Source: a bacterium (GTDB lineage Bacteria > Elusimicrobiota > Elusimicrobia > UBA1565 > UBA9628). From it: a stretch of DNA of 64,000 nucleotides. The translations under genes were made by a program, and so were the position numbers. Position 1 is the first letter of the stretch; the number at the start of each line of letters is the position of its first letter. The stretch is taken from assembly GCA_021822495.1 (NCBI GenBank), contig JAKAQO010000001.1, forward strand, positions 264,808 to 328,807, read 5' to 3'. Below are positions 390-56,835 of this stretch, in pieces. Below the pieces are notes generated by a model, which searched no databases, was not told where the DNA came from, and worked only from the letters and a program-made list of their open reading frames with translations.

Positions 390-415
390 AAAAGGGGACT
401 GTCCCCTTTTTTTCT
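390..415 (+). terminator. Rho-independent terminator formed by a palindromic element (AAAAGGGGACTGTCCCCTTTTTTT), copy 1 of the repeat family
   Basis: Perfect 6-bp stem GGGGAC/GTCCCC around a central T, followed by a T7 run, directly after the ankyrin stop codon. Confidence 0.6.
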
Positions 416-497: not shown

Positions 498-3167
498 ATG
501 ATAAAAAATTATCGCCGACGTCAAAAAGCGGGATTCTTTATCGGGGCTTGCTTCCTGTTGACTCCCTGGGCCCACGCGCAAATCCTTTCTTTAAAGGATA
601 CACAGGCGATTAAAGCCTGTCAAATAACCCTAAAAACCTTTAAGACGCTTTCTTTCTCCCGGCAAAAAGAGATTTTATCCGGAAATTGCGATCACCCAAC
701 GACGTTTTTGATGAGAAAAACCGCCAACAACAATCCCCCGCAAGAAAATGGTCTTGAGAAATCTTCCAACCATATTCACGACCTTCTGCAAAGAGCGAAG
801 ACAAGTTTTGGCGCTCATTCATCGGATGAAAACATCGCCGTTTCCGGCCTTTCGGGAAAAACAGAAAGACTCATTTCTCCGGTTGCGGTTCAAACCCATT
901 TTTCACAACTTTCCTCGGCCTCAACCCCTCTCAATCCAAACTCGCCCTCTTCACCCAACGCTCAACCTCCAGCGCAAAAGCCCGGTAAACCCGCAAAACC
1001 AGCCACAAAGCCTGCGGCTAAAAAACCCCGGTTTATTCCGATTCCCGGAAGCGATTGGGAAAAAGCGGCTAATGGGGACGTCAGCCCTGAAGACGATCCC
1101 GGCTACGAAAGCGAAATTACTTTTAATGATCAGCTGATGAACCAAGATAATCAAGTCGGAGATACCAGCAAAGCCTGCCGCAAGCTCGATCTGCATGGAG
1201 CCGGAGCCTATTGGATAGGAGATTTGGGAATATCAGGCTCCATCCATCGCGCGATACTCGCTCTCCCTTACGCCAATGGACGCCTCGCGGTCTTGGATTC
1301 TTATACGCCGGCGCCTGAATATCATTACGGCTTTGTTCCCACCAGTATCAGCGGAGCGCCGCTCACCTTGACCTTGGGCATGAATACCAGTCTCAACACG
1401 ACCGTCATTCGCCCGCTTCCGCTGAACCAGGCCAGCGCCTGCAACAGTCTCCTGCGCATCTTTAATCCGCTTGACGCTAAAACCGTTTTTCCTCTCAACG
1501 CTAAACGCATCGAGAAAATGGAAATCGGCGAAATCTGGAAGTTGCCGGTTCAAATTCAAATCGCGGCCGGCCCGGGCCTTACCCCGATTTTCGGCCCCGC
1601 CATCATCGGGCTTAACCTCCTCTACTCCCAAACGGGCGGCTATGGCCTCACCTTAAGACGCCTAGATAAAACCCATCTGCGGGTCCGGCTTAGATTTAAC
1701 CACGCCAAACTTTTGAGCGCTTCGGGACAAACCCTTTTCAGCATGGCCGGCCCCATGTTGTCGGTGATATTTTCGCAAGAAGTGCCCGTCGTGGGAGATT
1801 CTTTGGGCGGCAGAAACGTCGGGCAAGGGCTCAGCCAACTCTGGATTACGCAGCTCATCAATTACACGACCACCAAACTTGGAGTGTCCATCTCCTGGAG
1901 CGGAGAAAACCAGGCCTTGATTGAATTTATCCTCAACCCCGAAGATCACAAGCAAATGCTGGAGCTTCAAAAACTCGCGACCGGCGGCAGATTCGGAACT
2001 CTTTCAACGCTTATGAAAATGTATACGGACTCGGCGAAAAACTCATTTAAGCTGACGGAAAAATCCGTGATTAAAAACGCCCGTCAAAACAGCTTGCGCC
2101 TGAAAAGCCCGGTCAATTTCCTCGGAACCCAGGAATCGGTGGGCATCAGCCGCTCGGTTAATTTCACGATTCCGATTATCTTTAATTTTTCAGCCCAATC
2201 CTCTCATGATCATCAGCAAATGAAAATACTCGATCCCTCCGGAGGAGCTTTCAAGGTTAGCGGAACCTTCAAAGCCTTTGACGCCTCTCATGGAAATCAA
2301 CATGGAGAATTACAACTCCCTTATTTCGGCTCTCTCTTTGAACAAGACTCCCAGGAAGGAGTTTCGACTTTCCTCTATTACGACAAGAAAGGACGCGTGT
2401 CCTCGCCGGTCATTCTCTACACCCAAAACGCGGGACTGACCAGAAACAGCAAAGCCCCTTTGCGCTTAACCGAACTTGCCCGTTCTTTTTTCCCAAGCTA
2501 TGGGGATAAGAAATTGGCTCTTCCCTTGGGCGGCCTCATTCCCAAAGGAGAGAAGGACGCCTACAAAGGCGGTTCCTCGGCCATGACCGTCGTTTTGGAT
2601 CATAATGCGATCTCTGACATTAAGCGCGCATCCAAAGACCTCATCTTCAAATCCTATTTAAACGCCCAAAAAAATCGACGGGAGCTTTTATTAATCGCCT
2701 CCAGAGCCGTAAAGAGGCATACCACTCCCGAAGCCCTCATTGACAGAGAAATTCGCGGTCTCTATCCTCCCGGAAAGCCAAGCCCTGAGAAAACCCGCCT
2801 TATTTCGCATCTTCATGCCGAAAAAGATCAATTCGAGCAAATGAGAGATTTAGTCGCGGAATTGCCTTATTTGGGAAATCCTCACAAAAAACCGCATATC
2901 ACTCCTGATGAAGAAACGCAAAATATCCGCAATTTCATAACGGGAAAAAGCAAAAATGGTTTGGCTTATGGAAATTTGATGAAAGTCATCGTGCGCCTCA
3001 TTAAACCCAAGCACTTAGCCGTGGAATTTGTCTTAAGCGCCAAAAGAAAAGGCGGCAAAAGAGACCAGACGCGCCTCTATTTGAACCATAAACTCGTGGA
3101 AAACCCTCTCATCAAGAGATGGAGTTTGGCCGCCTCCCGGTATCTTGTCCTTCAAACCACCGATTAA
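498..3167 (+). CDS. Large secreted hypothetical protein (889 aa) with an N-terminal signal peptide and a Pro/Lys-rich linker
   Basis: Long ORF. N-terminus 'FFIGACFLLTPWAHAQ' is signal-like. PAKPATKPAAKKP low-complexity linker. No family recognised. Confidence 0.6.
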   Translation: MIKNYRRRQKAGFFIGACFLLTPWAHAQILSLKDTQAIKACQITLKTFKTLSFSRQKEILSGNCDHPTTFLMRKTANNNPPQENGLEKSSNHIHDLLQRAKTSFGAHSSDENIAVSGLSGKTERLISPVAVQTHFSQLSSASTPLNPNSPSSPNAQPPAQKPGKPAKPATKPAAKKPRFIPIPGSDWEKAANGDVSPEDDPGYESEITFNDQLMNQDNQVGDTSKACRKLDLHGAGAYWIGDLGISGSIHRAILALPYANGRLAVLDSYTPAPEYHYGFVPTSISGAPLTLTLGMNTSLNTTVIRPLPLNQASACNSLLRIFNPLDAKTVFPLNAKRIEKMEIGEIWKLPVQIQIAAGPGLTPIFGPAIIGLNLLYSQTGGYGLTLRRLDKTHLRVRLRFNHAKLLSASGQTLFSMAGPMLSVIFSQEVPVVGDSLGGRNVGQGLSQLWITQLINYTTTKLGVSISWSGENQALIEFILNPEDHKQMLELQKLATGGRFGTLSTLMKMYTDSAKNSFKLTEKSVIKNARQNSLRLKSPVNFLGTQESVGISRSVNFTIPIIFNFSAQSSHDHQQMKILDPSGGAFKVSGTFKAFDASHGNQHGELQLPYFGSLFEQDSQEGVSTFLYYDKKGRVSSPVILYTQNAGLTRNSKAPLRLTELARSFFPSYGDKKLALPLGGLIPKGEKDAYKGGSSAMTVVLDHNAISDIKRASKDLIFKSYLNAQKNRRELLLIASRAVKRHTTPEALIDREIRGLYPPGKPSPEKTRLISHLHAEKDQFEQMRDLVAELPYLGNPHKKPHITPDEETQNIRNFITGKSKNGLAYGNLMKVIVRLIKPKHLAVEFVLSAKRKGGKRDQTRLYLNHKLVENPLIKRWSLAASRYLVLQTTD

Positions 3168-7834: not shown

Positions 7835-8317
7835 TTATTCTCGCGGTATTTTGACTTTAAATTTTAAAGTCTGCCCCACCGCCAAATGATCTCTCTTGGC
7901 CGCCCCGGCGGGTAATTCCAGAACGTATTGGCCTTGACCGCCAACCCTGGCGACATCGGCATCAGTCGTCTTAGGTGTTGAGGCCGCGACGTTCGGATAC
8001 AAAGCGGTGATTTTCTTATCCCAACCGATATAGACCATATCCAAATTGACCCAGGTATTTTTCATCCAAAACTCGAAATACCCCTCTTTAGGGAAAACGA
8101 AAAGCATCCCGTAATCTTTAGGAAGCTTTTTCCTAAACATCAGCCCCTCTTCCCGTTCTTTCGGCGTATCGGCGATATCGGCCTTAATCTTGGCGCCCGA
8201 AGAGGACGCGATGACGACATGGTGAGAGGCATGAAATGTTTTCCCGGTCTTGGCCCAAACAGAGGCTTTTGCGCAACAGACTAAGCCCAAAATTATAAAA
8301 GTCTTTTTCAATCTCAA
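7835..8317 (-). CDS. DUF192-domain secreted protein (start trimmed to an in-frame TTG with an AGAGGA RBS; the longer ORF-track N-terminus looks spurious)
   Basis: 'GLMFRKKLPKDYGMLFVFPKEGYFEFWMKNTWVNLDMVYIGWD' matches DUF192. A signal-like 'KTFIILGLVCCAKASVWA' follows the proposed TTG. The longer ORF would overlap a well-supported + strand gene. Confidence 0.5.
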   Translation of the reverse strand: MRLKKTFIILGLVCCAKASVWAKTGKTFHASHHVVIASSSGAKIKADIADTPKEREEGLMFRKKLPKDYGMLFVFPKEGYFEFWMKNTWVNLDMVYIGWDKKITALYPNVAASTPKTTDADVARVGGQGQYVLELPAGAAKRDHLAVGQTLKFKVKIPRE

Positions 8318-8631: not shown

Positions 8632-9636
8632 ATGCCCCCCATTCTTTCCATCTCCAATCTCAAGGTCCGCTTTTCAACCGATTCCGGCACGATTGGGGCC
8701 GTTGAAAACCTAAACTATTCTCTCAACGCGAATCAAACCCTGGCCATCGTCGGGGAATCCGGATCCGGGAAAAGCGTCCATGCGCTTTCCATTCTCCGGC
8801 TTCTGCCGCCCCCGCCCCAATGCCTAGTTGAGGGAGAAATTTTATTTCACGACAAAAATCTTTTAAATCTCCCGCTCAAGGAAATGCGCAAAATCCGGGG
8901 AGACCGCATCGCGATGATTTTCCAAGAACCGATGACTTCCTTAAACCCGGTTTTAACCATCGGAGAACAGATCGCCGAGCCCTTGATGATTCACAAGGGA
9001 AAAACGCGCTCAGACGCCCTCAATGAGGCGGCGCGGCTTTTAGACCGCGTGGGAATTCCCGACGCAAAAAGCCGTCTCAAGAATTATCCTCATCAATTTT
9101 CCGGCGGAATGCGCCAGCGCGCGATGATCGCGATGGCTTTAAGCTGCAACCCCGAAATTTTAATCGCTGATGAGCCAACCACCGCCTTGGATGTCACCAT
9201 TCAAGCTCAAATTCTCGAACTCATCAAGGAACTCCAAAAGGAGTTTCACATGGCGGTGATTCTAATCACCCACAACATCGGCATCGTCGCCGACATGGCG
9301 GATCAAATGATTGTGATGTATGCGGGGCGGGCTGTTGAAACGGCTCCCATGAATTCTCTTTTTAACCATCCTTCCCATCCCTACACCCAGGGACTTTTAA
9401 GCGCGATTCCGTCTCTTGATTCCAAAAAAAATCGCCTTGAGTCTATTCCTGGTCGCCCCCCGGATTTAAAAAATAAGCCCCAGGGATGTCCTTTTTCTCC
9501 GCGCTGCCCTAAGGTTCAAGCCCAATGCAGGGAAAACGACCCGCCCTTTTTTGACCTTGGAGATGCTCACAAAGCCAACTGCTGGCTCATGGAAGAGTTA
9601 GGGACAGTCCCCAATTCTCAAGGAGAAAAAGTATGA
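8632..9636 (+). CDS. oppD: Oligopeptide/dipeptide ABC transporter ATP-binding protein (OppD/DppD-like)
   Basis: Walker A 'GESGSGKS', signature '[12 protein letters not shown]', Walker B '[11 protein letters not shown]', C-terminal oligopeptide-type extension. Start trimmed to the internal ATG with a GAGG RBS. Confidence 0.8.
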
Positions 9637-10646
9637 CAGAAGTTAGAGACAGTCCCCAATTTCCTCCTATTCTTGAAGTCAAAAATATCCGGAAATTTTT
9701 CTCATCCAAAGCGGGAATCTTTGGAAGCCCTAAAACCGTCCGCGCTCTCGACGGGATTTCTCTCTCGGTTCAAAGAGGAAAGACGCTGGGAATCGTGGGA
9801 GAATCCGGATGCGGGAAAACGACCCTGGGCAGAATTCTCGCGGCGCTTGAAACTCCAACGGAGGGGCAAATTTTCTACGAAGGCCGCGAAATCCAGAGCC
9901 TTAAGGGCCGGGAACTAAAAAAATTCAGGAAAGAAGTTCAAATCATCTTCCAAGACCCCTACGCAAGCCTCGATCCGAGAATGACGATTTTCGAAATTTT
10001 AAGCGAACCCTTTATTATTCACGGAGAATGGGACTCCGCCGAAACTCCTAAACGTTTATTGAAGCTCGCTTCAACCTGTGGAATCTCCCAGAGCCATTTT
10101 TCCCGCTACCCGCACGAATTTTCGGGCGGACAAAGACAAAGAGTGGGAATCGCCCGAGCCTTGGCCTTAAACCCGAAACTTGTCATCTGCGATGAACCGG
10201 TGAGCGCACTGGATGTTTCCATTCAGGCTCAAATTCTCAATCTGCTCAAGGACCTCCAGGAAGAAATGGGACTCACCTATGTTTTCATCTCGCATGATTT
10301 TTCGGTCGTCCGGCATCTCTGCGATGAAATCGCGGTCATGTATTTAGGCCGCGTTGTCGAGTCCGCCAAGGCCGACGAAATTTTTTCAAACTCCCAGCAT
10401 CCATACACCGAAGCCCTTTTGTCGGCCATCCCTCTGACCGACCCCGAAAAACAAAAATCGCGAAAGCGCATCATCCTCTCAGGAGATATTCCAAGCCCGC
10501 TCAACCCTCCCGCCGGATGTCCGTTTCATCCCCGTTGCCGTTATACCGAAAACTCGTGTCGCGAAAATGTGCCCGCTCTTTCAGAAATCTCTTCTAACCA
10601 TTTGATTTCTTGCCCCGTTCGCCCGCTCGCAAAAGTTCCTTCATAA
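9633..10646 (+). CDS. oppF: Oligopeptide/dipeptide ABC transporter ATP-binding protein (OppF/DppF-like)
   Basis: 'GESGCGKTT', 'FSGGQRQRVGIARAL', 'VICDEPVSALD'. Overlaps the oppD stop (ATGA). Confidence 0.8.
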   Translation: MTEVRDSPQFPPILEVKNIRKFFSSKAGIFGSPKTVRALDGISLSVQRGKTLGIVGESGCGKTTLGRILAALETPTEGQIFYEGREIQSLKGRELKKFRKEVQIIFQDPYASLDPRMTIFEILSEPFIIHGEWDSAETPKRLLKLASTCGISQSHFSRYPHEFSGGQRQRVGIARALALNPKLVICDEPVSALDVSIQAQILNLLKDLQEEMGLTYVFISHDFSVVRHLCDEIAVMYLGRVVESAKADEIFSNSQHPYTEALLSAIPLTDPEKQKSRKRIILSGDIPSPLNPPAGCPFHPRCRYTENSCRENVPALSEISSNHLISCPVRPLAKVPS

Positions 10647-17951: not shown

Positions 17952-18215
17952 TTAAGCCTTCTTGGACATCGCGCGGAACAAATCGTGAAGAAATTCTTGC
18001 GCGTTGGGCGCTCCGTGATAAGCCGCGGCCTCTTCGGGAGTTTTTTCAAGGGTGAGAAAGCATCCGGCGCAAAAAGAAATTCCGTGGCGGTCTAAAACCG
18101 GTAAAATCTCCGGGTGGCGGCAAATGAGATCAAAAAGCTGAATTTTTGCGATATTTTTTTGCGGCCTGTTTTTCTTGAGCCTCTTTAAAGCGGGCTTGCG
18201 TTTTCTTTTTTCCAT
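17952..18215 (-). CDS. DUF1858-like redox-disulfide small protein (CxGC)
   Basis: 'HPEILPVLDRHGISFCAGCFLTLEKTPEEAAAYHGAPNAQEF' matches the DUF1858 hybrid-cluster-associated domain. The Lys-rich N-terminus may be an over-extension. Confidence 0.5.
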   Translation of the reverse strand: MEKRKRKPALKRLKKNRPQKNIAKIQLFDLICRHPEILPVLDRHGISFCAGCFLTLEKTPEEAAAYHGAPNAQEFLHDLFRAMSKKA

Positions 18216-19261
18216 TCAAAAGGCCCCCGAGGGAAATTCATCGCCAGCCTAATCGCCAGATCAATATCTTCCTGGCTTGCGATTTTTTCTTTAAACGCGA
18301 GTTCCGCTTCCCCAATCAGCGCCTGGGCGATCTTGTTCCAGGATTTTTCGGCGGTAACATTGGCTGTCCCCCTCATCTCCAAGGCCATGGGGTTGACCGC
18401 GATGATTTTTCCCGATTCATAAATATAAAACCCGCGACCGGATTTTTTTCCCAGTTGTTTCAAGGCGACCAAACGCTCTTGAATCGGCTGCGGTTGAAAT
18501 CGGGCAGGCCGCCCCAAGGCTTCATAAATACTTTTGGTAATTGAGAGATTCACATCCAGGCCGATTAAATCCATCAGTTCAAACGGCCCCATCGGGACAC
18601 GTCCGATTTCTCTCGCCACTCTGTCAATTTCAAGCAGCTCCGCGCCGGACAAGACCTCGCGCTGGGACTCCAGATAATAGGGCCTCATGACACGGTTGAC
18701 GATAAAACCCGGGGTGTCTTGGACCGAAACCGCCCGTCTTTTAAGCCCTTCCTCGATAAAATCTTTCGCCGTTTTAAAAACCTCTTCTTGGGTTTGAGGC
18801 GCGCGAATCATCTCGACCAGCTTCATCGCGACCGGAGGGTTAAAGAAATGAAGCCCCAAGAATCGCCCCGGGGTTTTAAGCCCTTGACCGACATTGGAAA
18901 CCAAAAAAGACGAGGTGTTGGTGGCCCAAATCGCTTGAGGACAAACTTTTTCGATTTCAGATAAAATTTTGACCTTGACGGGCAAATCCTCGATGATGGC
19001 CTCAATGATTAGATCACAGGAAGAGAGTTCACCCAGGCTCTTGGCATAAACGATATTTTGATTTCCCCACTCCGCTCTTTCTTGAGAAATGCGATTTTTG
19101 GCGGCGGCGTTTAACAGTCCCTCCCTGATTCGGCCCGCGCCCGCGCATAAGGATTCCGGGAAAACATCCCATAAGGCGACCGGAAATTCATTTTGCAGGC
19201 ACAACTGGGCGATACCCGCGCCCATGGTCCCCGCGCCAAGAATTCCAACTCGTTCAATCAT
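18185..19261 (-). CDS. 3-Hydroxyacyl-CoA (3-hydroxybutyryl-CoA) dehydrogenase, Hbd/PaaH-like
   Basis: 'VGILGAGTMGAGIAQ' NAD-binding fold and 3HCDH N- and C-terminal domains. Start trimmed to 'MIERVGILGAG'; the ORF-track extension runs through the upstream palindromic repeat. Confidence 0.8.
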   Translation of the reverse strand: MIERVGILGAGTMGAGIAQLCLQNEFPVALWDVFPESLCAGAGRIREGLLNAAAKNRISQERAEWGNQNIVYAKSLGELSSCDLIIEAIIEDLPVKVKILSEIEKVCPQAIWATNTSSFLVSNVGQGLKTPGRFLGLHFFNPPVAMKLVEMIRAPQTQEEVFKTAKDFIEEGLKRRAVSVQDTPGFIVNRVMRPYYLESQREVLSGAELLEIDRVAREIGRVPMGPFELMDLIGLDVNLSITKSIYEALGRPARFQPQPIQERLVALKQLGKKSGRGFYIYESGKIIAVNPMALEMRGTANVTAEKSWNKIAQALIGEAELAFKEKIASQEDIDLAIRLAMNFPRGPFEWKKENASPL

Positions 19262-19285
19262 AAAAAAAGGGACAGTCCCCTTTTT
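19262..19285 (-). terminator. Palindromic element copy 2 (AAAAAGGGGACTGTCCCTTTTTTT on the minus strand), a terminator between the PaaA-like gene and hbd
   Basis: Same GGGAC(A/T)GTCCC core with flanking A/T runs, 3 nt after the PaaA-like stop and immediately 5' of the hbd ATG. Confidence 0.5.
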
Positions 19286-19287
19286 AT

Positions 19288-20115
19288 CTATCCGGGAATA
19301 AAGGGCTCTTCCGTCATCTTGGAAATTTCCGGCTTCCAATCGGGAACCTTGAGCCCAAATTGGGCGCATTTGTTTTTAACATCGGCGGCGAAAGATTGAC
19401 GAACCTCGTCATTATCCCGTTTTTTGAGCCCCAGCTTGCGGTAAATTTTATTTTTAGGAGATTCCGCCCGACCGAAAATATTCATCGTTCGCGGATACCA
19501 TTTATCGAGGGCCTTTTGGAGTTCATCGTGGGTCTTATCGTCTTTGGCCAATTTCTCGGTCCACTGATCCCCGTGCGCCATGTGCATTCCTTCTTCCTTA
19601 AAGATTCCGTCCATGACGTCGCACCAGGGCTTATAGGATGAATCCATCGCGTCTTCCAGTTGATGCCCGGCTCCCCGGTCCATGCAGAAATTAAACATGA
19701 TGAAGTCATACCAGGTCTCAATCGGATAATAAAAGATATTGACCCGCTTATCCTCGGCCACGCGCTTGGTTCCGATGTCGTCGTCTTGGACGCGCAGATT
19801 AAAATTGTGGCTTTGGTAATAATCATCCACGTTAATTCCCATTCCTTCTAAAAGACGGTACATCACCCGCGCATGGCGCACTTCATCTTTAACGATTTGG
19901 GCGACTTGCAAAGTCTCTTTAATATCCGGTGATTTCGCGATCCACGGAACGTATCCAAAAGCCCCGGCAAGCTCCGAGTCGGCCTGCATCATCATGAGAT
20001 GAGTCAAATTTTCTCGATATTCATCCGTCATTTCATCCAGCGTTTCAATCTTTTTTCCCGACGCAATCTTGGCTTGCAATTTTTCTTCTTTAACGCGCTC
20101 CGGTTCTTTGGACAT
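19288..20115 (-). CDS. Ferritin-like di-iron protein of the PaaA/PaaC (phenylacetyl-CoA epoxidase subunit) family
   Basis: 'MMMQADSELAGAFGYVPWIAKSPDIKETLQVAQIVKDEVRHARVMYRLLEGMG' fits the PF05138-type ExxH ferritin-like pattern. Confidence 0.55.
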   Translation of the reverse strand: MSKEPERVKEEKLQAKIASGKKIETLDEMTDEYRENLTHLMMMQADSELAGAFGYVPWIAKSPDIKETLQVAQIVKDEVRHARVMYRLLEGMGINVDDYYQSHNFNLRVQDDDIGTKRVAEDKRVNIFYYPIETWYDFIMFNFCMDRGAGHQLEDAMDSSYKPWCDVMDGIFKEEGMHMAHGDQWTEKLAKDDKTHDELQKALDKWYPRTMNIFGRAESPKNKIYRKLGLKKRDNDEVRQSFAADVKNKCAQFGLKVPDWKPEISKMTEEPFIPG

Positions 20116-24396: not shown

Positions 24397-24771
24397 TTAT
24401 ACCATCGTTCCGATCAAAACCCCAATGCGGTAAAAGACGAGCCCGGCCCCCAAGTTCCCAATTAAATTGGCTCCCGCCCGCATCATTTCGCCGTTATCGG
24501 CCAGATTTGAGGTTTCAAGGATCCAAGTTGAGAATGTGGAATATGCGCCGCAAAAACCCGTCATGAGAAGAAGTCGCGCATTCGGCCTTAAGGCCCCGCG
24601 AGACGTCATACCGGCTAAAACGCCCACGATGAGACACGCCGTTAGATTGACGACCCAGGTTCCATAAGGAAAGCCTGTTCCAGTAAATTCCGGAACCCAG
24701 GTCGAAACGAGGTAGCGAAGAAAGGTTCCTAAAATTCCCCCTACCGAAAGAATCAGCCACTTATTATTCAT
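24397..24771 (-). CDS. crcB: Fluoride ion channel CrcB/Fluc
   Basis: 'GGILGTFLRY…GFCGAYSTFSTW' CrcB motifs, four TM segments. Start at MNNKW with an AGGAG RBS. Preceded by a fluoride riboswitch. Confidence 0.85.
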   Translation of the reverse strand: MNNKWLILSVGGILGTFLRYLVSTWVPEFTGTGFPYGTWVVNLTACLIVGVLAGMTSRGALRPNARLLLMTGFCGAYSTFSTWILETSNLADNGEMMRAGANLIGNLGAGLVFYRIGVLIGTMV

Positions 24772-24797
24772 CAGAATAATCTCCTGATTAAGTTTTT

Positions 24798-24858
24798 TGG
24801 TAGGAGTTATCATCCTCGGAGAGACCAAGGCTTTTAGGCGAACCCCATCGCCTGTGGT
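24798..24858 (-). ncRNA. Fluoride riboswitch (crcB RNA motif) in the crcB 5' leader
   Basis: Minus strand reads AGGCGAUGGGGUUCGCCUAAAAGCC…GAGGAUGAUAACUCCUACC, matching the conserved GGCGAUGGnGUUCGCC…AAA…CUGAUGAUnCCUAC pseudoknot core, ~20 nt upstream of the RBS and ATG. Confidence 0.7.
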
Positions 24859-24863
24859 TTATT

Positions 24864-55278: not shown

Positions 55279-56835
55279 ATGGGACTTATACATCAAGCGA
55301 AAAATAACGACCCCGTCGAGACTCTTCAAGAGCTTCTCAAACGCAGAGCCCAAGAAGCTCCGGGGAAGCCCTTTCTTTTCTTTAAAGACCAAATTTGGAG
55401 CAGACAAGAATTGGATATCGCCTCAAGCATCTTGGCCCAGGAAATCAAGGACCTTGGCGTCAAAGCCCAAGACCGCGTCGCCCTCATTGTTCCCAATGGA
55501 CCGGAATTCATCCTTCATTTCTTTGGAATCCTCAAGGCGGGAGCTCTCGTCGTTCCGGTCAACACCGCACTCAAAGAAGAAGAGATTTCTTTTATTCTCA
55601 AAGACTCAGGCGCGGTCTGCGCCTTCACGGGGCCGTCTCATGAGAAAAGCCTCAAATCCTTGACTGACCGCATCCCTTCCCTCAAAACCATTCAAGCTCT
55701 CCCTTTGGGGGAAGACAAAAATTTCTGGCTCAAAAAGGGGACAGTCCCCTTTATTGAGGAAAAGGGGACTGTCCCCTTTTCGGCGAGCCTCATCTACACC
55801 TCGGGAACGACCGGTTTCCCCAAAGGCGCCGAACTCACACATCGCAACTATCTGTTTGACGTGCAGAAATTCGTCGAAGCGACTCAAATGAATGAGTCCG
55901 ACCGGTTTTTATGTTTTCTGCCCCTTTTTCACGTCAACGCCCAAGTCGTCACTCTTTTATCCCCCCTCTATTGCGGCGGCGCCATGGTCTTGATGGAAAA
56001 ATTCGCGCCCAAGGAATTTTTTGAAACCCTCTCCTCAAAAAAAGCGACCTCCTTTAGCGGGGTTCCGTCCGTCTATTCCGTGCTTTTAGGCGTTCCGGAT
56101 TCCGCTAATTACGATTTATCCTCTCTTCGGTTTTGCATCTGCGGAGCGGCCCCGATGCCGGTTGAGATTTTTGAGCGCTTTGAAAAAAAATTCAACGCCT
56201 ACATCCTCGAGGGATATGGACTCTCGGAAGGAACCTGCGTTTCTTCCATCAACCCGCCGCCCCCGCAAAAAAGAAAAATCGGTTCCATCGGCCTTGCGCT
56301 CAAAGATCAGAATATGAAAATTTTGGATTCCGCAGGAACAGAACTTCCACGCGGGGAGATTGGCGAAATCGCGATTCAAGGCGAAAACGTCATGAAAGGC
56401 TATTGGAATAATTCCTCCGCAACCTCGCAAACCATTAGAGATGGTTGGCTCTACACCGGCGATTTAGGCTATCAAGACGCGAACGGATTTTTCTTTATCG
56501 CGGGGCGTTCAAAAGAAATGATTATCCGCGGCGGAGAAAACATCTACCCCAAGGAAGTGGAAGAGTCCCTCTATCGCCATCCCGCCATTTTGGAAGCGGC
56601 CGTGATTGGACTCCCGGATCAGCGTTGGGGCGAAGAAGTGGCGGCCTTTTTGGTTTTAAAAGAAGGTCAAAGTTTAACCGCCAAGGATGTTCGCCTATTT
56701 CTCAAAGACAAAATCGCCGATTATAAAATCCCGCGGCAAATCGAGATTCTTTCTTCCTTGCCTAAAACGGCGACCGGAAAAATCCAAAAGCTAAAGCTCA
56801 AAAAAGAAATTTGCGAAAGGGAGGGACTCCGATAA
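55279..56835 (+). CDS. Long-chain-fatty-acid–CoA ligase (AMP-binding), carrying an in-frame palindromic-repeat insertion before the P-loop
   Basis: 'IYTSGTTGFPKGA' AMP-binding motif and 'YGLSEGT', 'GYWNN', 'YTGDLG' cores. Start trimmed to MGLIHQ. Confidence 0.85.
   Translation: MGLIHQAKNNDPVETLQELLKRRAQEAPGKPFLFFKDQIWSRQELDIASSILAQEIKDLGVKAQDRVALIVPNGPEFILHFFGILKAGALVVPVNTALKEEEISFILKDSGAVCAFTGPSHEKSLKSLTDRIPSLKTIQALPLGEDKNFWLKKGTVPFIEEKGTVPFSASLIYTSGTTGFPKGAELTHRNYLFDVQKFVEATQMNESDRFLCFLPLFHVNAQVVTLLSPLYCGGAMVLMEKFAPKEFFETLSSKKATSFSGVPSVYSVLLGVPDSANYDLSSLRFCICGAAPMPVEIFERFEKKFNAYILEGYGLSEGTCVSSINPPPPQKRKIGSIGLALKDQNMKILDSAGTELPRGEIGEIAIQGENVMKGYWNNSSATSQTIRDGWLYTGDLGYQDANGFFFIAGRSKEMIIRGGENIYPKEVEESLYRHPAILEAAVIGLPDQRWGEEVAAFLVLKEGQSLTAKDVRLFLKDKIADYKIPRQIEILSSLPKTATGKIQKLKLKKEICEREGLR
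55732..55781. repeat. Inverted pair of palindromic elements (copies 3 and 4: AAAAAGGGGACAGTCCCCTTT…AAAAGGGGACTGTCCCCTTTT) inside the AMP-ligase CDS
   Basis: Identical cores to 394..406 and 19269..19280. Translates in-frame as KKGTVPFIEEKGTVPFSA. Confidence 0.7.

Follow-up and report, generated by a model that had tools for sequence, protein, structure and literature searches.

Results

A palindromic hairpin repeat in the window

The DNA analysed here, called the window, is a stretch of 64,000 nucleotides from contig JAKAQO010000001.1 (positions 264,808 to 328,807) of a bacterium of the Elusimicrobia. The element in question is a short palindrome with the tip GGGAC-W-GTCCC, where W is A or T. 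It follows an ankyrin-repeat gene, fills the spacer between a PaaA_PaaC-family gene and hbd, lies twice in frame within an acyl-CoA ligase gene, and is found in degenerate form where one oligopeptide ABC ATPase gene adjoins the next. These copies form one hairpin repeat family, members of which flank genes of the RAYT type (tyrosine transposases associated with REPs, the repetitive extragenic palindromes) in other genomes. We consider it likely that the element is a hairpin repeat of the REP or terminal inverted repeat (TIR) type, in the class that is headed by GGGGWSAS and flanks the RAYT Group 1/TIRYT/subclass 2.1 Y1/HUH transposases, and that it is mobilised by such an enzyme.

The sequence AAAGGGGAC(A/T)GTCCCCTTT occurs four times in the 64 kb, while about 0.01 occurrences are expected, bearing out the proposal of an earlier note on this DNA that the copies belong to a single dispersed family. 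With up to three mismatches the 19-mer was found at four places (0.01 in shuffled sequences), and with up to one mismatch the 13-mer was found at five (0.06 in shuffles). The window holds four full and two degenerate copies, and the copy density is about one per 13 kb. The half-sites occur only inside palindromes (3/3 for AAAGGGGAC and 4/4 for GTCCCCTTT). The three longest perfect palindromes of the window all belong to this family. The idea that the window is merely rich in palindromes was rejected: perfect palindromes with arms of 7 nt or longer number 11, compared with 2–16 in shuffles, and the long ones are only those of this family. Two copies lie downstream of a gene in a co-directional context, two lie inside a gene and two at gene termini. 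No Rfam family matched at the palindromes of the window at gathering scores, and a tRNA search found none near them. A literature search by sequence (GGGGACAGTCCCC, GGGGTCAGACCCC, their RNA spellings and the 11-mers) matched only unrelated eukaryotic or viral primers.

The 3′ part of the ankyrin-repeat gene (Pfam Ank_2) occupies positions 1–384 of the plus strand and ends in a TAA stop codon at 382–384. Copy 1 (390–413, plus strand) begins 5 nt past this stop as a 21-nt perfect palindrome, AAAAGGGGACTGTCCCCTTTT, at 390–410, with the 19-mer at 391–409 and a T7 run at 407–413, the arrangement that the earlier note had described. On the plus strand the predicted hairpin has a 9-bp stem, a 3-nt loop and a U7 tail, with a folding energy of −15.7 kcal/mol (z −2.4 relative to shuffles), and the site is terminator-like on both strands. 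It was listed by a terminator scan, which is itself unspecific (46 sites versus 32.6 in shuffles). Judged by this anatomy, copy 1 probably ends the ankyrin transcript, and either termination or protection of the 3′ end is a plausible role for it.

Copy 2 (19262–19287, minus strand) fills the 26-nt spacer between the PaaA_PaaC-family gene upstream (19288–20115, minus strand, TAG stop at 19288–19290) and the 3-hydroxyacyl-CoA dehydrogenase gene hbd (18185–19261, minus strand, 358 aa, exact protein P0121), and is located within an ECH-ECH-PaaA-hbd operon. It reads ATAAAAAGGGGACTGTCCCTTTTTTT on the gene strand; the gap reads AT AAAAAGGGGACTGTCCCTTTTTTT, and the 19-mer corresponds to 19265–19283. 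The arms contain one G–T mismatch (GGGGAC/GTCCCT), and the head reads AGGGACAG, unlike the GGGGACAG of copies 1, 3 and 4. Copy 2 was also listed by the terminator scan, having a 9-bp stem that includes a G–U pair and a U7 tail, and its T7 run abuts the hbd ATG (19261). Its fold of −9.9 kcal/mol is no better than that of shuffles (z −0.3). It had been noted earlier that an open reading frame (ORF) called naively through this gap yields the peptide KGTVPF. Such an ORF (18185–19369) does cross the gap, which translates to KKGTVPFF in frame with the hbd ATG, but it is spurious, since the recorded protein P0121 begins at the ATG at 19261.

Copies 3 (55734–55752, plus strand, centre A) and 4 (55761–55779, plus strand, centre T, 27 nt downstream of copy 3) are both in frame within the gene for an AMP-binding acyl-CoA ligase (55279–56835, plus strand, 518 aa, exact protein P0001), in agreement with the claim that the element is tolerated inside genes. 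Copy 3 encodes KGTVPF, and the two copies together translate to the 16-residue segment KKGTVPFIEEKGTVPF, directly before SLIYTSGTTGFPKG, in which SGTTGFPKG represents the SGTTGxPKG motif. As an inverted doublet in the A-then-T order, the pair can fold into a single 20-bp hairpin (−44.8 kcal/mol, z −7.3). The linker that holds the doublet varies in length from 0 to about 25 residues among homologues. For the uncultured source bacterium as a whole, the nearest homologues with a name are from Elusimicrobia metagenome-assembled genomes (MAGs), at 50–60% identity. When the 19-mer is read in all six frames, no stop codon is found in any of them.

The two degenerate copies are a direct repeat of GTTAG(G/A)GACAGTCCCCAATT, 45 nt apart, at the ABC ATPase junction. 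The first, GTTAGGGACAGTCCCCAATT (9598–9617, plus strand), lies at the 3′ end of the first ATPase gene, and the second, GTTAGAGACAGTCCCCAATT (9643–9662, plus strand), in the first codons of the second gene. The copy at 9598 gives the first ATPase a 10-aa tail, which is missing from the orthologue in L362 (loci outside the window are given by their L numbers), and the unit is absent from the L363 junction too. The pair brackets the Shine-Dalgarno sequence and the stop and start codons of the junction.

An invariant tip on an exchangeable stem

The sites of the window were compared with orthologous sites in related genomes. At the ankyrin site, located in relatives through orthologues of the 889-aa gene that follows copy 1, the tip GGGACWGTCCC is present in all four genomes compared (the window and L363–L365). 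L364 and L365 read TAAATAGGGACAGTCCCCATTTA at this site, keeping the tip with the U-tract absent (L364 reads ...GTCCCCATTTACTAGG). In the PaaA-hbd spacer, L360 and L361 have retained the tip along with the window and L362 lacks it; the arms of the three carriers are AAAAAG/TTTTT, GAATTG/TAATTC and AAATA/TATTT. L360 (...GTCCCTAATTCTTTGACCATG) and L361 have no U-tract here. The ligase gene carries two GGGACWGTCCC units at the same place in the window, L116 (86% protein identity) and L359 (82%). This 11-mer is identical in all six copies, although only 56–64% of the four-fold-degenerate sites of the gene are identical, and the doublet arms read AAAAAG...CTTT in the window versus GAGATA...TATCTC in L116. 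In the ligase of L357 (78%) the linker is ELGPVPDS (GGC CCG GTT CCC) where relatives read ELGTVPDS, which could be either a decayed copy or the ancestral state.

Orthologous sites thus conserve the hairpin tip and not the features of a terminator. The earlier note had the element serving as an intrinsic terminator at both intergenic sites. This is upheld for copy 1 by its hairpin and U7 tail; for copy 2 a terminator role is doubtful, since orthologues have not kept the U-tract and the site has operon genes on either side.

The exchange of stem sequences was quantified over 15 copies from the clade, some of which are mutual orthologues and hence not all independent. Six of 11 proposed base pairs change on both sides, giving a covariation score of 0.271, compared with 0.134 in shuffles (0/500 reached 0.271) and at most 0.139 in slid controls. 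Clade loci contain 12 occurrences of GGGACNGTCCC in 156 kb, with 0.14 expected. The tip is identical while the arms co-vary, and therefore the unit is an invariant tip, GGGAC-W-GTCCC, on an exchangeable paired stem, the outer part of which varies while its pairing persists.

Several further observations concern these sites. When clade copies are oriented with A at the centre (window 9606 and 19274; L116 10492; L360; L364; L365), six read A-GGGACAGTCCC-C, an A/C mismatch at ±6, and the opposite asymmetry is seen in one copy only (L359 3776). With a single opposite case against six, the flank asymmetry is therefore tied to the centre base. At the ankyrin site of L363 (9841–9935) the palindrome is split into GGGACAGTCCC, about 59–66 nt, and CAGTCCCCATTTAC, with a 7-nt direct repeat, CAGTCCC, at each junction. 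The inserted piece holds GGGACAGCGCC...GGCGCAGTCCCC, capable of forming a larger hairpin, and the split may reflect an insertion into the element or a duplication inside it. At or in the conserved ECH-ECH-PaaA-hbd block, two relatives have inserted restriction-modification genes, Vsr and EcoRII-C in L361 (343–1985) and an N6_N4 methyltransferase and MjaV in L362 (5541–7527); the window has none of these there.

Distribution and orientation of copies in other genomes

GTDB species genomes yielded at least 114 stretches with the exact 19-mer, belonging to at least 10 phyla according to record titles. Carriers among the matches listed include Actinomycetota, Planctomycetota, Myxococcota, Bacillota, Nitrospirota and Pseudomonadota, as well as Acidobacteriota/Aminicenantes, Omnitrophota, Bacteroidota and SAR324. 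Thermophilibacter provencensis, Gordonibacter sp. 28C and Thalassospira lucentensis are examples of carriers in culture. Many of these genomes have several copies each, with outer stems that are genome-specific. Complementarity of the flanks extends past the 19-mer to about ±16, at levels well above those of shifted controls. At position ±13, for instance, 47% pair (24–29% in controls), and no base is preferred there. A is found at −10 in 119/157 copies from other phyla and T at +10 in 123/157. The earlier note had looked to the flanks both for the full extent of the element and for a target-site duplication; no duplication was found.

As an internal control, all hairpins matching AAAGGGG-N5-CCCCTTT (A3G4-N5-C4T3) were collected, the metagenome and viral samples each being the first ~120 stretches listed. 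Of the 141 matches on metagenome contigs, 28 (20%; 24 loci; GC 39–70%) had the loop ACWGT and 22 the loop TCWGA, whereas the 129 matches on viral contigs included one ACWGT (0.8%) and nine TCWGA loops. The uniform expectation for either loop is 0.2%. Carriage by phages was considered and is unsupported, the ACWGT loop not being enriched in the viral sample (1/129). The TCWGA class corresponds to a sibling perfect palindrome, GGGGTC(A/T)GACCCC, which makes up 22/141 of the sampled metagenome hairpins (loci L237–L356) and occurs in L278 at 5–23, 1808–1826 and 2602–2620. The two sibling families differ in the pair beside the centre, A-T versus T-A, and share a constant central CWG.

By crude ORF calls, the intergenic copies of other genomes lie in 37 convergent, 61 co-directional and 20 divergent regions. 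The 64 copies called as within ORFs are an upper bound, since the stop-free unit and high-GC loci yield spurious ORFs. Among them the GTVP frame is commoner (30:17:17), but not significantly so, and the centre base is unbiased with respect to the direction of transcription (32 A to 29 T). On one Bacteroidales-like metagenome contig (L327), three copies at 7913, 8422 and 8620 read QKGTVPNC in long open frames and may be further in-frame insertions; the same contig has four intergenic copies as 41-nt perfect palindromes.

Copies in other genomes also form dimers and arrays; the window has singles and one dimer. Among 42 adjacent pairs of copies, the inverted ones were arranged A-then-T 18 times and T-then-A twice (binomial p ~4e-4). 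An actinomycetotal MAG (L036, 7915–8000) carries a same-orientation tandem array with a 39-nt period, GGTCCGGTCAGGTGGACCGAAAGGGGACTGTCCCCTTTT, in which no fewer than two complete units and the beginning of another precede the end of the locus.

RAYT-like genes adjoin hairpins in nine loci

A link to Y1 transposases had been missed in the earlier note. A Pfam scan of 110 ORFs adjoining copies gave two matches to Y1_Tnp, and a profile made from these two ORFs was run on six-frame translations of all loci examined. RAYT-like ORFs were found within about 150 nt of the hairpin in nine loci, and in 0/120 viral loci. The RAYT-like genes of L002 (Planctomycetota), L007 (Nitrospira) and L081 (a gammaproteobacterial MAG) have GGGACAGTCCC on both sides, and that of L289 lies between the inverted pair GGGGACAGGCCCC...GGGGCCTGTCCCC. 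In L098 one copy is upstream of the gene, and in L278 the sibling GGGGTCAGACCCC is directly upstream.

The NCBIfam model NF047646, 'REP-associated tyrosine transposase', was the best match for all five full-length proteins, three scoring above its curated cut-off of 80 bits and two below. In the source databases neither these RAYT-like proteins nor the ligase and hbd products carry a name. The RAYT-like proteins are 183–291 aa long and have the motifs NH[VFY]H, W[EQ] or FQ, and Y[IV]xxNP. These read NHVH/WE/YIEWNP in L002 (222 aa), NHFH/WQ/YIELNP in L081 (183 aa), NHFH/WQ/YIEQNP in L007 (228 aa) and NHYH/FQ/YVVLNP in L098 (291 aa). Subclass 2.1 of the TnpA-Y1 enzymes, as characterised by Quentin et al. 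2018 (PMC6006769), has NHVH/NH[YF]H, W[EQ]/FQ and YIELNP/Y[IV]HLNP motifs, a C-terminal extension and a median length of 238 aa, and by their motifs and lengths the proteins beside the copies fit this subclass. A table in the same paper equates subclass 2.1 with RAYT Group 1 of Bertels et al. 2017 (PMC5581495) and the paper links it to what Di Nocera et al. 2013 call 'TIRYT'. Group 1 is described as the most widely distributed RAYT group, present in 21 bacterial classes.

Di Nocera, De Gregorio and Rocco 2013 (PMC3733652) give GGGGWSAS as the common consensus of the inverted repeats flanking TIRYT genes, and describe some of these TIRs as self-complementary and present in moderately abundant families, as dimers or clusters. 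On the centre-A strand, the head GGGGACAG of copies 1, 3 and 4 is an instance of GGGGWSAS, and so is the sibling head GGGGTCAG. The consensus fits 70/141 of the sampled metagenome hairpins, compared with 14/129 of the viral ones. Because it includes the centre base, an otherwise symmetric unit gains a direction. The A-then-T arrangement is that of two heads reading inward, like the ends of the L289 gene, a REPIN (an inverted REP doublet) or a TIRtron with no gene.

Other features near the copies and in the window

Copy 1 is followed by the 889-aa gene (498–3167, plus strand), which has no Pfam domain. The intervening spacer (414–497) contains a block shared with L363–L365, CTAGGCC...TTTT...CTAGG..TTT.GGCCCAGG, and after this block TTTCCTGTTAGTATATATCA stands directly 5′ of the ATG. 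The conserved block may be a promoter very near the start codon of the 889-aa gene.

Two RNA motifs are the only Rfam matches at gathering score in the window. A fluoride riboswitch (RF01734, 47.1 bits) lies at 24794–24861 on the minus strand and overlaps the 5′ end of the ORF 24397–24828 (first-start call); the syntenic gene at this position in L360 is of the CrcB family and is followed by DUF190. A DUF3800-VI motif (RF02915, 39.7 bits, gathering score 35) lies at 32001–32064 on the plus strand, just upstream of the ORF 32085–32822.

Discussion

Comparison with known repeat systems

The element resembles the TIRs of TIRtrons (PMC3733652) in its GGGGWSAS head, in its self-complementarity, in its occurrence in families and as dimers or clusters, and in the subclass 2.1 motifs and lengths of the adjacent proteins. 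Its spread over many phyla likewise recalls RAYT Group 1. Unlike TIRtron TIRs it is a very short perfect palindrome with a conserved tip, it is held at orthologous sites with compensatory changes in the arms, it is abundant in metagenomes (about half of the A3G4-N5-C4T3 hairpins fit the head motif), and it occurs in frame in genes. A further difference is that neither the window nor ~130 kb of related loci yielded a cognate gene.

With the canonical REP/REPIN-RAYT systems of E. coli and Pseudomonas (Groups 2 and 3) it shares the form of short dispersed palindromes, which in those systems lie mostly 3′ of genes, and of inverted doublets that fold into a longer hairpin. The canonical systems have a single-copy Y1 transposase flanked by its own repeats, and for the present element such flanking is seen in other genomes. 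Unlike canonical REPs, the element lacks the 5′ GT[AG]G foot tag, conserves the tip and not the foot, is a perfect palindrome with no bulges, and has one core common to many phyla where REP families are species-specific. We have filed it under the TIRYT-associated repeats because the GGGGWSAS head matched while the canonical GT[AG]G foot failed.

The author of the earlier note had seen no description of such behaviour in so short a unit, an impression that the literature cited here contradicts: REPs of 20–40 bp have been published, with proposed roles in termination and mRNA stabilisation and a preference for convergent over divergent gene pairs (PMC3733652), and in-frame REPs are reported in many genes, including the transposase genes themselves (PMC6006769, PMC3733652). 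Rickettsia palindromic elements (RPE) are similarly described as palindromic repeats lying in frame in protein genes that still function. The classic RPE-1 is longer, however, and the short RPE-4 and RPE-6 are given as REPs with a CGTC tag (PMC3733652), a tag that is absent here. Copy 1 also has the A-tract, GC-rich stem and T-tract of a bidirectional intrinsic terminator, forming a hairpin with a U-run on either strand. Intrinsic terminators, though, are no sequence family and have no fixed loop, while in the present element the tip is conserved and the U-tract is lineage-specific. What appears to go beyond PMC3733652 and PMC6006769, as judged from the sequences compared, is the tip-conserved perfect palindrome, its abundance in metagenomes, the polarity of its doublets, the covariation at orthologous sites and the direct flanking of subclass 2.1 genes.

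A probable transposase-associated hairpin repeat

In the mechanism that we favour, a subclass 2.1 enzyme, the product of a single gene elsewhere in the genome, would recognise the hairpin when it is extruded in single-stranded DNA, and would copy or maintain single units and inverted doublets. HUH/Y1 enzymes of the RAYT type are described as binding and cutting REP hairpins in single-stranded DNA (PMC6006769). Copies would then persist where they are harmless or useful. The A-tract and T-tract flanks could make an intergenic copy into a bidirectional terminator-like hairpin or an RNA hairpin that protects 3′ ends, and copies inside genes could survive by being stop-free in six frames and sited in a variable linker or at gene termini. 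REPIN populations are reported to persist vertically over long periods, and the strong conservation at orthologous sites fits such persistence.

A number of points weigh against this interpretation. The same conservation is explained no less readily by host selection than by mobility. Neither a target-site duplication nor a clean pair of filled and empty sites was found in related loci, and the ligase unit of L357 could have arisen or decayed via point changes, not insertion. The GT[AG]G tag of REPs is absent, with no GTAG or GTGG abutting the copies of the window or the clade. The profile search found no RAYT-like ORF in the window or in the ~130 kb of related loci, and the flanks of the genes in L002, L007 and L081 share their centre base (A/A) and form no inverted pair. 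In their account of subclass 2.1, Quentin et al. (PMC6006769) report that they found no REP-like sequences beside these genes. Finally, the copy counts cover the 64-kb window and related loci, the scan of the GTDB genome collection was run without a control pattern, and the figures of the wide-distribution scans are those of the matches listed.

A more specific form of the proposal, which we put forward only tentatively, is that GGGAC-W-GTCCC and its sibling GGGTC-W-GACCC are the cognate, sequence-conserved REP of RAYT Group 1/subclass 2.1, the largest of the RAYT groups, with the tip read by the enzyme and copies fixed by hosts as functional elements. If so, reading of the tip by the enzyme would be why an 11–13-mer recurs in at least 10 phyla under genome-specific stems.

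Alternative explanations

The copies might instead be host-selected RNA hairpins, that is, terminators or mRNA-stabilising stem-loops with no mobile-element biology, arising from a favoured design (a G4/C4 base, A/T tracts and a self-complementary CWG tip) together with local duplication. Such an origin would suit the complete terminator anatomy of copy 1, the A/T tracts beside most copies elsewhere (119/157 and 123/157), the preference for convergent over divergent intergenic regions (37 vs 20) and a centre base that is indifferent to transcription (32 A to 29 T), and a conserved tip with co-varying arms is an outcome of selection on structure. Terminators, however, need no set loop, whereas in metagenomes ACWGT exceeds the uniform expectation 100-fold, an enrichment that viral contigs do not show. 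The U-tract is not kept in orthologues, in-frame ligase copies are retained in three genomes, RAYT-like genes adjoin copies in nine loci, and the 18:2 polarity of doublets is unexpected for independent terminators. We therefore regard host hairpins with no mobile origin as unlikely.

It is decidedly improbable that the palindrome is a double-stranded operator, an 11-bp dyad GGGAC-W-GTCCC bound by a dimeric regulator or nucleoid protein and forming hairpins only incidentally. An operator would explain why the palindrome is perfect to its centre, including the C and G beside the centre, which are unable to pair in a hairpin, and why the centre is only A or T and an unchanging tip sits between drifting flanks. 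The arms outside the dyad, however, co-vary so as to stay complementary, for which a duplex site has no need, and the sites lie at gene 3′ ends and in coding sequence, not at promoters, with divergent intergenic regions the least used class. Binding of one and the same sequence would be required across at least 10 phyla, and the adjacency to transposase genes would be unexplained.

A DNA-uptake signal can be given very little credence. The DNA uptake sequences (DUS) of Neisseria and uptake signal sequences (USS) of Haemophilus often come as inverted pairs that serve as terminators too, are likewise tolerated within genes, and have a density of roughly one per kb. The dual location, terminator-like between genes and in frame within them, and a CTG/CAG core are analogous to DUS/USS, but the half-sites AAAGGGGAC and GTCCCCTTT never stand alone in the window, a count on which this identity was rejected; the density of ~1 per 13 kb is far below that of uptake sequences, and the element is spread over unrelated phyla. 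Restriction sites, Vsr/Dcm bias, primase CTG sites, CsrA, parS-type sites and CRISPR repeats were also considered and were dropped, with no supporting result.

Implications

The hairpin repeat family accounts for six odd sequence features of the window together. It also carries three warnings for annotation: the repeat is the origin of the KGTVPF peptides and of the 10-aa ABC ATPase tail, the ORF called through the PaaA-hbd gap is spurious, and a terminator call in that gap is unsafe. If the tentative assignment as the cognate REP of Group 1 is true, host-fixed copies, including translated copies in enzymes, would be kept for long periods at orthologous sites via compensatory changes. The results suggest that a simple 11–13-mer can serve as a marker for the repeats of the most widespread RAYT group in uncultured phyla and, if confirmed, this would provide a handle on the function of Group 1 RAYTs and on the co-option of their hairpins by hosts.

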